Below the pieces are notes generated by a model, which did no database searches, was not told the origin of the DNA, and was given only the letters and a program-made list of their open reading frames with translations. This document shows, piece by piece, positions 29,791 through 32,939 of a DNA stretch of 64,000 nt (positions are counted from its first letter, which is position 1; each line of letters opens with the position of its first letter). A program made the translations under genes and the position numbers. Source of the stretch: Dudresnaya verticillata (taxonomy: Eukaryota); assembly GCA_977862235.1 (NCBI GenBank), contig OZ374557.1, positions 2,852,001 through 2,916,000 on the forward strand. The letters run 5' to 3'.

Positions 29791-32700
29791 TCAAGATTCG
29801 GAATTCGGTCGCGATGTACATGTGAGGAGTACATGGGGCATGTTTTTTCCACGTTCCAGGCATTGCAAGGCCATTGCAGTAAAGCCGCAGTCGATCTGGA
29901 ATAAATGCTGTAGAGGGAGGATTCTGAAAGCTCGTGCCAGGCGATTATACCCAGTATGTATCTCGGAGGTTACTCTGACCGTAATATCGTAGTACGACGA
30001 TTCCAACCTGTGCAAATCCCATGCAAAGAACGCCACCAGCCCACTCAGCGTCTCCGGCGCTTCCTCTTGGCCTGTCAAACTATACGGATACTTCTGGGAC
30101 TCACATCCAGGTAATGCGCTGAATCCGTAAAGAGAAACGAGATGTTCTTCTTCCCTCGCAACCTTCTACAACGACACTCCGTGAAGAGTCTCAGTTATTT
30201 TGGAACTCTCAGCATTTCGGTGCACAGATGCTGTTCCGAATTTATCTCCGTCTTGAAGCAGGACTACCATCGAAGCACCCCGCAGAGGATCAGATTCTGA
30301 GCCTTCCGGACTAGTTCGTTTCTGTTTGGCGGGTTGCTGGTCTGTTAAAGTTGACGTTATCACATTCTCCTCATTCCATACTACTTTCCCTCTCTTCTCA
30401 GCGGAATTAGTATCGGTAGTCGCTTCGCGGTGTTGCCGTTTGAGGACAGTGAGTGTGGAAGAGCACTGCGTTTCATTACACACATCGACTGCGCTTTTCT
30501 TCAAACGATCATATGCCAGTCTGAATGTTGCGGGGTTCTGCTCGATGCCCACAGTCGGGCGCCCCGTTTTTAATCCTGCAATGAAAGTGGTCAGGGTACC
30601 TCCATAGGCATCCAAAACGCGTCCACCATCGGGAAAGAAAGTTTTCATGACCTCCATTAGAGCCAAAATGTTCTTCTCCTCTACCAGAACAGGGGATTTG
30701 GTCCCTGGCTTCAGAATCTTTTGCCTTGATACTGGAACACTTGAGAAGGTTGCGAACTTTCGTCGATCTTTGCTTACCAAGACGTTAAATGGAATGGACA
30801 GGTCAGGCTTGAATTTCCCCCACACGTTCCCCGTCGGCGCCCAAACGCGGCTACTTCCGTAGCATTCTGTGGGTAGTCATTACGATGTCCCTGCAATTTC
30901 CTGGTATCTTTGCAAACGCTGAAGGGACATTCCGGGCAGTCGAACCCAGCATCAATCAGAGCACGTTGATACTTTGCGAAGTTAATGAAACTGCAGATGA
31001 TGAAAACCCAGTGACCAGGTTTAACGACCCTTCGACATAATTCGATGAATTGCTTAATCTCCCCATCGCTGATATAACTGTCGTAAGATGTACCAGCATT
31101 CGAACGACTAGGCGGTATTCCGTACGGAGGGTCCGTCAGTACGAGGTCGAACAGTGGGCTCGAATCGTTTCGAACGGACTGGTCATACGTCTGCCACCTC
31201 ATGCGGTGGAAACTGATCCTCATTGAATTCAGTGCATCTACTTCTTCAGAACCTGATGTTTCGAGCTTTTCAGACTGTACGGTAGACGCGGACGATCGTG
31301 TATGTTTTGCATTCCCTTCCAGATGGCGATTTGTGTCCTCCCCGTTGTCTCCAGCATGGCTATTGGCGGTCGCTTTCTCGTTTTCATGTGTTGTGCCACA
31401 GTTACCATCCTCATTTGGTGATTCTTGCTCGTTTCCCTGCGGTTCTGAAGGGTTTGTTCCGGAACCAGTAGTACTGTCAACACATCCCGCGGCGACAGAC
31501 TTGCAATTCTGTTTATTAACAGGTGCCCCAGGTTTTGGTGAAGGAATGTAATCTCCACAATCAGTGCGCTCGGCACCATCACAGTGTAAGTGCGACCCTT
31601 CCAGAGAGGCATTATCTGGGCACTGTCCTGAACTATTTGTTATCATATTTCCGCCAATGCTGTTAAGCAATTCGGCATGCTTCTTCTCCAAACAGCAGCT
31701 TCCTGGGACAGACATCCCTGTAAAAGTCCAATATAGATGCCAAAATGTCCTTGTCATTTCCTAGATTCTCCGCAACCTCATCATCCATCTTCTGTGTGTT
31801 GAGAAGGTTCGAGTGAAGCACCTGCATGGACTCTGGCCACTCTTGACTTTCCCGGAGAGCTTCAAACTTACGAACCTCGCGAAGAGCGGCGGTGGGCTTC
31901 TGAAACTGTTCCACAGTGTACCCGTAAGATAGCGGTTTGAAGTTGTGTAAACGGTGCAATTCTCTCAAACGGTATAAAGTCGTAATCTGTGCTTGTACAC
32001 CATCCGGTGCTTTCGACGCGTTCATGAACACTGTTGCGGACTTGAGAGATATTATATTGATGAACTTGCGGTACACTCGACAGTCCATACTCTTATTGAC
32101 GTCCTTGTGATCCACATTCGTAGTTCGAATCGACACCAAATCATCCGTCTCCTCTTTTATAATGTCTCTGATTGTGTCAATTACTGCGCGGGTCAAGTCT
32201 AAGGACAGTCTGGGCAGTCCGTTTAATAGTATTGTCCCTGAAATGGTTACATACGTCAAAGGCTTCAGCAATCTCGTGGCATTCGGAAGTGTTCCGCCAT
32301 TCCCCGCTGTGAGACGATCTTCATCCTCTCTCAGGCCTCGAAGAGTATCGAAGAAGGTAGTCGCAATGTAGAATGAAGAATCGTGTTTGTCATTCTGGTG
32401 ACGAGCCAATTGTCGAAGTGACTGCAATTCATGGTTCCCTCTCAGAACAGTAACAGGCCATGAGAAAATTTTCCACGTCTTGTAATCCTCCTCCCGGAGT
32501 TGTGTGATAGCTGTAAGTCTGTGCATCCCGTCCACTACTCCATACCATTTCGCTCGATTGTTTGACATTTCCACGGACTCTTTTTGCGAGTATGACGTTC
32601 CTTATTTCTTCAACTTTTGTTGGAAGTGCTCAATTACCAAAGATCGAACGGACCCAGACATTTCAATTACAATAGGATCGTCAGAGCCAGTAACATATCC

Positions 32701-32939
32701 AATGGCACTAGCTCGAGGATCGTGGACGCCCTTGCGCGACACATCAAAGCGCGCCTTCAAACGCTCCACTCCAGACCTCACAATAAGCTAATGGCCGTTA
32801 ATGGAATACAGGAAGCGGGGCCTACTCTTGTGTTGACGGAACCATCTATTGAGTCAGCGAATAGAGCTTTTGCGGTCTGTGTCGATCGAGGAATCTGTTT
32901 AGGTCCAGCACCTCTCGACCTTCGATTCCCACCACCCAT
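29791..32939 (-). pseudogene. ParB/Srx-like domain fused to a beta-class amino-DNA methyltransferase (N6_N4_Mtase type), frameshifted
   Basis: GVERLK..PIV..WYGVVDGMHRLTAI (ParB-like). FDLVLTDPPYG (motif IV), RRVVKPGHWVFI, then GGRVLDAYGGTLTTFIAGLKTGRPTVGIEQ..AYDRL (motif I after IV). ORF pieces 31663-32574, 30774-31757, 30166-30825. Confidence 0.85.

Follow-up and report, generated by a model that had tools for sequence, protein, structure and literature searches.

Few transposons are known whose proteins modify the element itself, and the accessible text of a preprint on the red alga Bostrychia names plant VANDAL only (bioRxiv 10.1101/2025.02.11.637652). Self-modification has been proposed for two algal systems. 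In the brown alga Ectocarpus, the transposon Sola1-1_Ec32 (21.5 kb, listed as complete and autonomous) has a 4-bp target site duplication (TSD) listed as biased to end in A, 282-bp imperfect terminal inverted repeats (TIRs) and AACCG..CGGTT ends, and it carries, opposite the transposase, a gene for a 1104-aa protein with ParB-like and N4/N6 methyltransferase parts (PMC12477816, published in 2025). Plavaka elements of Bostrychia and other red algae carry a methylase gene (PF01555) and a ParB-like gene with adjacent inverted-repeat arrays (bioRxiv 10.1101/2025.02.11.637652). A ParB-HTH fusion is also described from phage, where the accessible text of Iyer 2016 joins it to a group-2 chlorophyte-type Dam and not to a circularly permuted enzyme (PMC4738411). 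In the literature searched, with searches that targeted neither the shared domain nor the motif erosion described below, we found no experimental test of a transposon ParB-methylase protein.

Here we describe a further member of this kind, a dead one, in a 64,000-nucleotide stretch of the Dudresnaya verticillata assembly (GCA_977862235.1, contig OZ374557.1, positions 2,852,001 to 2,916,000; hereafter the window). A sequence-only reading had reported a ParB-like methyltransferase gene on a transposon here. It had the gene, its domains and the element right, and it missed that the copy is dead, that the design had already been published for Ectocarpus in 2025 (PMC12477816), and that most long relatives have lost the DPPY motif. 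Likened by description and not by sequence, the locus resembles Sola1-1_Ec32 in being a giant TIR element with a ParB-like and methyltransferase fusion opposite the transposase; the protein measures ~980 aa versus 1104 aa, the TIRs ~243 versus 282 bp, and the ends read AACAC..GTGTT versus AACCG..CGGTT. Unlike the complete, 21.5-kb Ectocarpus element, it is 14.3 kb long and dead. It resembles Plavaka PAG2 and PAG3 in being an algal DNA transposon with a PF01555 methylase, a ParB-like part and nearby inverted repeats, but it has one ParB-methylase ORF and a DUF7869 transposase, where the preprint, in its accessible text, gives PAG2 a methylase-SET protein, PAG3 a ParB-2OG oxygenase and Plavaka an EnSpm transposase. 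The phage fusion of Iyer 2016, as far as its accessible text goes, differs as well, since the methylase of the window is beta-class, with DPPY before motif I. The accessible text of PMC12477816 does not mention a palindrome array, a domain shared with the transposase or motif erosion for Sola1-1_Ec32. As far as that text and the Bostrychia preprint extend, neither contains the family's at least 345 clusters, the shared domain or the motif loss in most long relatives; their supplements, or Iyer 2011, may already hold them.

A decayed ParB-methyltransferase gene

The pseudogene lies on the minus strand at 29990..32939, from an ATG at 32939 to ~29990-30000, where homology to intact relatives ends; the end at 29791 noted earlier is the stop of its last frame (29791-29793). 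Every motif named in the sequence-only reading was recovered, in the claimed order, on the minus strand: VVDGMHR at 32538-32518, DPPY at 31133-31122, VLDAYGGT at 30618-30595 and GIEQ at 30549-30538, spread over several reading frames. Frameshift-aware alignment to four intact homologs found 898-955 residues colinear with the pseudogene at 40.7-42.5% identity. The intact relatives on which that reading had let its proposal depend do exist, as colinear proteins of 920-1015 aa. All four alignments agree on at least five frameshifts and two stops: a frameshift at ~32785, an in-frame stop at 32602-32604, a compensating pair of frameshifts at ~32276-32291 and 32182, a frameshift at ~31640-31700, another that falls between motifs IV and I of the methyltransferase, at ~30800-30835, and an in-frame stop at 30166-30168 (all minus strand). 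Because the pieces are colinear with intact homologs and broken by frameshifts and stops, they belong to a single gene, as had been supposed, and on these alignments the copy in the window is one decayed gene, now dead. Assembly error is an unlikely cause of the substitution stops and of the 10-16% divergence between the TIRs.

The pseudogene retains 145 of the 168 positions that are invariant in seven close intact relatives, which themselves retain 87-97% when left out one at a time. Its ancestor was therefore under selection, and the pattern of retained positions would fit a selected ancestor followed by decay. CpG observed/expected ratios of 0.95-0.97 showed no depletion across the gene or the element, and a sigma-70 promoter scan upstream of the pseudogene gave matches at chance level only.

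The ParB-like part (31696..32939, minus strand; family HMM iE 1.6e-115) comprises a nucleotide-binding fold with a GxxRxxA motif, which reads GMHRLTA in the pseudogene from 32529, and a helical region predicted to bind DNA. Its ParB profile signal was weak, with matches to GmrSD_N in Pfam (E 0.023) and to the ParB-like PHROG 1033 (E 0.008) and no Pfam match to ParB_N; the Atlas match scored 0.90-0.93 with few shared features. A full-length model from a six-sequence alignment was unusable (pLDDT 38), and the structure used was a model of the ParB part of a relative, P0028 (pLDDT 86), not of the window's own protein. When this model was compared with the PDB using Foldseek, the first 11 ranks were all ParB-family chains (best E 4.6e-3, none at or below 0.001), and in the VIA fold search the first 14 rows were ParB-family, with the best row outside ParB/Srx at Z 4.9. 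Superposition on PadC (Z 10.3, rmsd 2.4, 97 residues aligned) points to the ParB/Srx nucleotide-binding fold. Against ParB/Noc, 186-192 of 193-199 residues aligned (rmsd 5.2-6.0, Z ~10), which is near full length, and the match therefore takes in the helical DNA-binding part as well as the nucleotide-binding one. The ParB assignment is weak by sequence and strong by the predicted structure of this relative.

Like the CTPase clamps ParB, Spo0J, Noc and KorB, the protein has a predicted N-terminal fold of 330 residues (Z 8.4-10.3), GxxRxxA and nearby palindromes. Unlike the bacterial clamps, it shows 11-16% identity, large insertions, fusion to a methylase and a location on a eukaryotic transposon; no ParA was seen among the ORFs scanned. 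Between the ParB part and the methylase lies a low-complexity, poorly conserved linker (31260..31695, minus strand), variable in the alignment and disordered in intact relatives.

The N6/N4 methyltransferase domain (30490..31259, minus strand) has motif IV (DPPY) before the SAM-binding motif I, which is the beta-class order and is shared with M1.HpyAVI (5HEK), CcrM and M.PhiCh1-I. Pfam N6_N4_Mtase (PF01555) matched the two halves of the domain at E 1.3e-5 and 4.7e-4 (25.7 and 20.6 bits), each below the curated cut-off of 26.7 bits because the frameshift splits the domain, whereas intact close relatives exceed it at 42.7-57.8 bits. These matches in relatives, with the alignment of the P0028 model to ParB/Noc, bear out both the ParB-like plus beta-class architecture that had been proposed and the prokaryotic type of its domains.

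A profile of 99 family sequences searched against the PDB placed beta-class adenine enzymes at the top (5HEK 2.6e-19, 8URK 2e-14, CcrM 1e-11), with weaker matches to the 4mC enzymes PvuII (8e-4) and rotifer N4CMT (0.019). Over the domain, identity to the listed enzymes from phages and plasmids was 25-31%, and the best match from a phage, M.PhiCh1-I (31%), is annotated as an adenine methyltransferase. The paper that cites code 5HEK describes M1.HpyAVI as a dimer, an adenine enzyme with DPPY and relaxed specificity (PMC5173035). With DPPY present and the nearest solved and named relatives being adenine enzymes, adenine appears the likelier target base, and if the enzyme is active it would very probably modify adenine rather than cytosine. 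Alternatively, the protein could write N4-methylcytosine, or its mark could restrain the element, as 4mC on transposon ends of the rotifer Adineta may silence them (PMC10406627). The Pfam N6_N4 family does not separate the two chemistries, 4mC enzymes do occur among the weaker matches, and the Ectocarpus authors leave 4mC or 6mA undecided (PMC12477816). However, the motif is DPPY and not SPPY, adenine enzymes score far higher, and an element-borne gene would be more simply selected if it helped its element; we regard a 4mC or self-limiting writer as quite unlikely.

A Sola1-like host transposon

The gene sits in a whole DNA transposon of 14,339 bp, Sola1-like, that spans 21279..35617 and interrupts a Gypsy gag. 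The transposon location claimed from sequence alone holds, as shown by TIRs of ~243 nt, the interrupted gag and a DUF7869 transposase. The left TIR (21279..21521, plus strand) starts AACAC and the right TIR (35375..35617, minus strand) ends GTGTT, and the two are identical at 108 of the 120 outer bases and at 205 of ~243 overall. By comparison with a plus-strand paralog at ~46010, the gag halts at one transposon end and resumes at the other. The TSD is likely 4 bp, with CCAG at 21275..21278 and CAAG at 35618..35621 (plus strand) differing by one mismatch; the same flank bases in this single copy also fit a 2-bp TSD with GAACAC ends. CACTA-type CAC termini were rejected, as the flanks would then show no duplication. 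Sola1 transposons prefer AT-rich AWWT targets (PMC3845634), and the one target site available here, CC/AAG, is off that preference.

Convergent with the methylase gene is the decayed DUF7869 transposase (23588..26512, plus strand; Pfam E 2e-20). It has DGAD at 25188, DNC at 25434 and GHTHxDxD at 25536, and DGAD, DNC and HxDxD are motifs that we take to be linked to Sola. Alignment to the intact transposase P0175 gave 42% identity over 941 residues, with five frameshifts and seven stops in the window copy. At its C-terminus (26117-26500, plus strand) is a weak BAH-domain match (E 0.027), a possible chromatin reader.

The methylase protein ends in an unnamed domain of ~95 residues (30004..30270, minus strand; local HMM iE 6e-20), and the same domain occurs at the N-terminus of the transposase (23609-23899, plus strand; local HMM iE 1e-18). 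Among 14 transposase relatives it was found in one, the intact P0175 (iE 1e-27). A Pfam search gave no notable match to it and an Atlas search gave none. Standing at the end of one protein and the start of the other, this domain is possibly a shared DNA-binding or docking module. A likeness to the En/Spm Tnp1 domain was unsupported by any comparison and was dropped.

Also inside the transposon is a decayed MTHFR gene fragment (26989..27948, minus strand; Pfam MTHFR E 1.3e-7, MTHFR_C E 3.3e-13 and 4.2e-12), which is a C-terminal part, apparently intronless. With it, the element combines part of a methyl-cycle enzyme gene with a SAM-dependent methylase, a combination that by default we put down to chance capture. 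Other decayed ORF-like stretches in the element, at 29124-29780 and 21800-23590 (both minus strand) and 33450-35370, received no Pfam assignment, and one stretch just downstream of the methylase gene looks coiled-coil.

Relatives and motif loss

Searches with the ParB-part ORF of the pseudogene first gave two intact proteins, 922 and 1010 aa long, that match Pfam N6_N4_Mtase, and then 345 representatives at 50% clustering, so the family counts at least 345 clusters; 150 of these representatives make up the family listing. Further intact relatives came from cluster members and from a search with the methylase region. Pfam N6_N4_Mtase was present at E<=0.01 in 44 of 52 long relatives scanned, and none of the 52 had a SET or oxygenase Pfam match.

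No relatives were found in 509 candidate stretches from metagenome contigs or in 93 from viral contigs, and in prokaryote genomes 9 of 285 candidates were related, all through the methylase domain only, as frames of 250-380 aa without the ParB motif pattern. A match to the full-length fusion was absent from the phages, plasmids, viral contigs and prokaryote genomes searched. As to the proposal of horizontal acquisition, the prokaryotic matches are methylase-only, mostly at 24-34% identity, and none has the fusion, so any transfer that we infer would be ancient, and no donor emerged from these collections.

Two pairs of methylase and transposase relatives came from the same source with the same longest-contig size (8748 and 8751), that is, two matches among 308 pairs where ~0.04 were expected. 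To judge from these equal sizes, the paired genes probably lie on common contigs, which suggests that the methylase-transposase pairing recurs beyond the window. One pair joins P0025, the best match to the window's ParB part among the matches listed, to P0175, a 53% transposase match bearing the shared domain. The pairing bears on a rival reading of the gene as passive cargo, captured from a phage, a virus or the host and without a part in the life of the element. The dead, captured piece of MTHFR in the element and the pseudogene state of the window copy would agree with such an origin. Against it stand a large family of long intact ORFs, the likely pairing, on two other contigs, with related transposases, the domain shared with the transposase, the same layout in a brown alga and the lack of a full-length match in the phage, plasmid, viral and prokaryote collections just named, and we consider passive cargo very improbable. 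We are highly confident of the identity of the gene, a decayed transposon accessory gene whose intact form joins a ParB fold to a beta-class methyltransferase.

Across the family, the motifs are often lost. The catalytic motif [DN]PP[YF] is kept in 22 of 60 non-redundant long relatives and GxxRxxA in 26 of the 55 that have the ParB motif region; among these 55, both motifs are kept in 15, neither in 24 and one without the other in 16. The 38 of 60 that lack motif IV as aligned include some that are fragmentary or poorly aligned there. Where the region is present, 28 of 31 proteins lacking motif IV keep the D...G/N pattern of motif I. In a midpoint-rooted FastTree of 51 proteins, with 9 left out for missing regions, motif erosion clusters mostly in one large clade; it therefore represents few independent events, and the association p-value overstates independence. 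Many of P0027-P0173 swap DPPY for EPPS, AIP-, ALPS and the like, lose the ParB arginine and keep the SAM-binding motif. Judged by their motifs, the motif-lacking relatives within P0027-P0173 are a large pseudoenzyme clade, and with motif loss in so much of the family, catalysis would be dispensable there. The window's own clade (P0001, P0003, P0007, P0022, P0024 and P0025; support 0.996) keeps both DPPY and GxxRxxA in six of six members, as does the window copy.

This pattern underlies the main rival to a methylation role, in which the family is mainly a non-catalytic DNA-binding scaffold or reader that aids transpososome assembly or regulation, and methylation is incidental. The ParB part would bind the element, and the methylase fold would bind SAM, DNA or modified bases. 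Such a role is favoured by the many relatives without a canonical motif IV that nonetheless keep the motif I pattern, by the joint erosion of the two motifs and by the domain held in common with the transposase. It is favoured by the motif-dead relatives and not by the window's clade, where both motifs persist throughout, and overall we judge it unlikely.

Candidate binding sites and proposed self-marking

Within the transposon, 1.2 kb downstream of the methylase gene, lies an array of ACCT-N(4-8)-AGGT-type palindromes spaced ~35-40 bp apart (28461..28810), which are candidate parS-like sites. ACCTA/TAGGT half-sites number 12 in these 350 nt, as against no more than 3 anywhere else in the window, and 2000 shuffles gave a mean of 0.7 and a maximum of 4; the half-site pattern was chosen after the array region had been seen, and the excess is large nonetheless. 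parS sites have a fixed spacing, unlike the variable 4-8 nt spacers of this array. The palindromes could instead be bound by another protein, or belong to the captured MTHFR segment.

Self-marking with 6mA appears the likeliest function of the intact relatives, and those with DPPY are probably active DNA methylases. We lean towards reading the window gene as a decayed accessory gene whose intact form served as a self-targeted methylation writer of the 14-kb Sola1-like element that carried it. In this reading, the ParB part would attach as a dimer to the palindromes inside the element and, because GxxRxxA is kept, may act as a CTP-dependent clamp that loads there and spreads. N6-methyladenine would next be placed on nearby element DNA by the methylase, held on its flexible linker. 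The element would gain from the mark, either through sustained expression or through control of the transposase, which has a domain in common with the methylase. We hold the whole chain tentatively, as a somewhat doubtful sum of steps that, beyond the anatomy, we infer. A more elaborate version seems unlikely: a complete ParB/parS module acting as an epigenetic painter, in which the clamp loads at the palindromes, slides, deposits 6mA with low specificity, docks on the transposase via the shared domain, licenses jumping and evades silencing, with the large motif-lacking sub-family as dead readers.

Should intact relatives write 6mA where their ParB part binds, they would constitute a prokaryotic-type DNA methylation system that eukaryotic transposons encode, and perhaps a writer that could be targeted. 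The dead copy in the window contributes candidate binding sites, intact proteins to assay and natural motif-dead relatives as controls.

Elsewhere in the window, a 363-codon stop-free frame at 58468-59556 (plus strand) has an RWP-RK domain (E 2e-7) and is probably a host transcription factor gene. Together with the Gypsy elements and the MTHFR regulatory domain, this ORF marks the host as eukaryotic, and the absence of introns would point to a red alga. Long unannotated frames at 38408-41056 (plus strand) resemble another decayed transposase, and 43563-44003 (minus strand) gives a weak piggyBac-type DDE_Tnp_1_7 match (E 0.01). Further Gypsy-type copies lie at 44677-51052 (plus strand), 7600-14300 (minus strand) and 61596-63824, the last with 385-nt direct repeats that are 98% alike.
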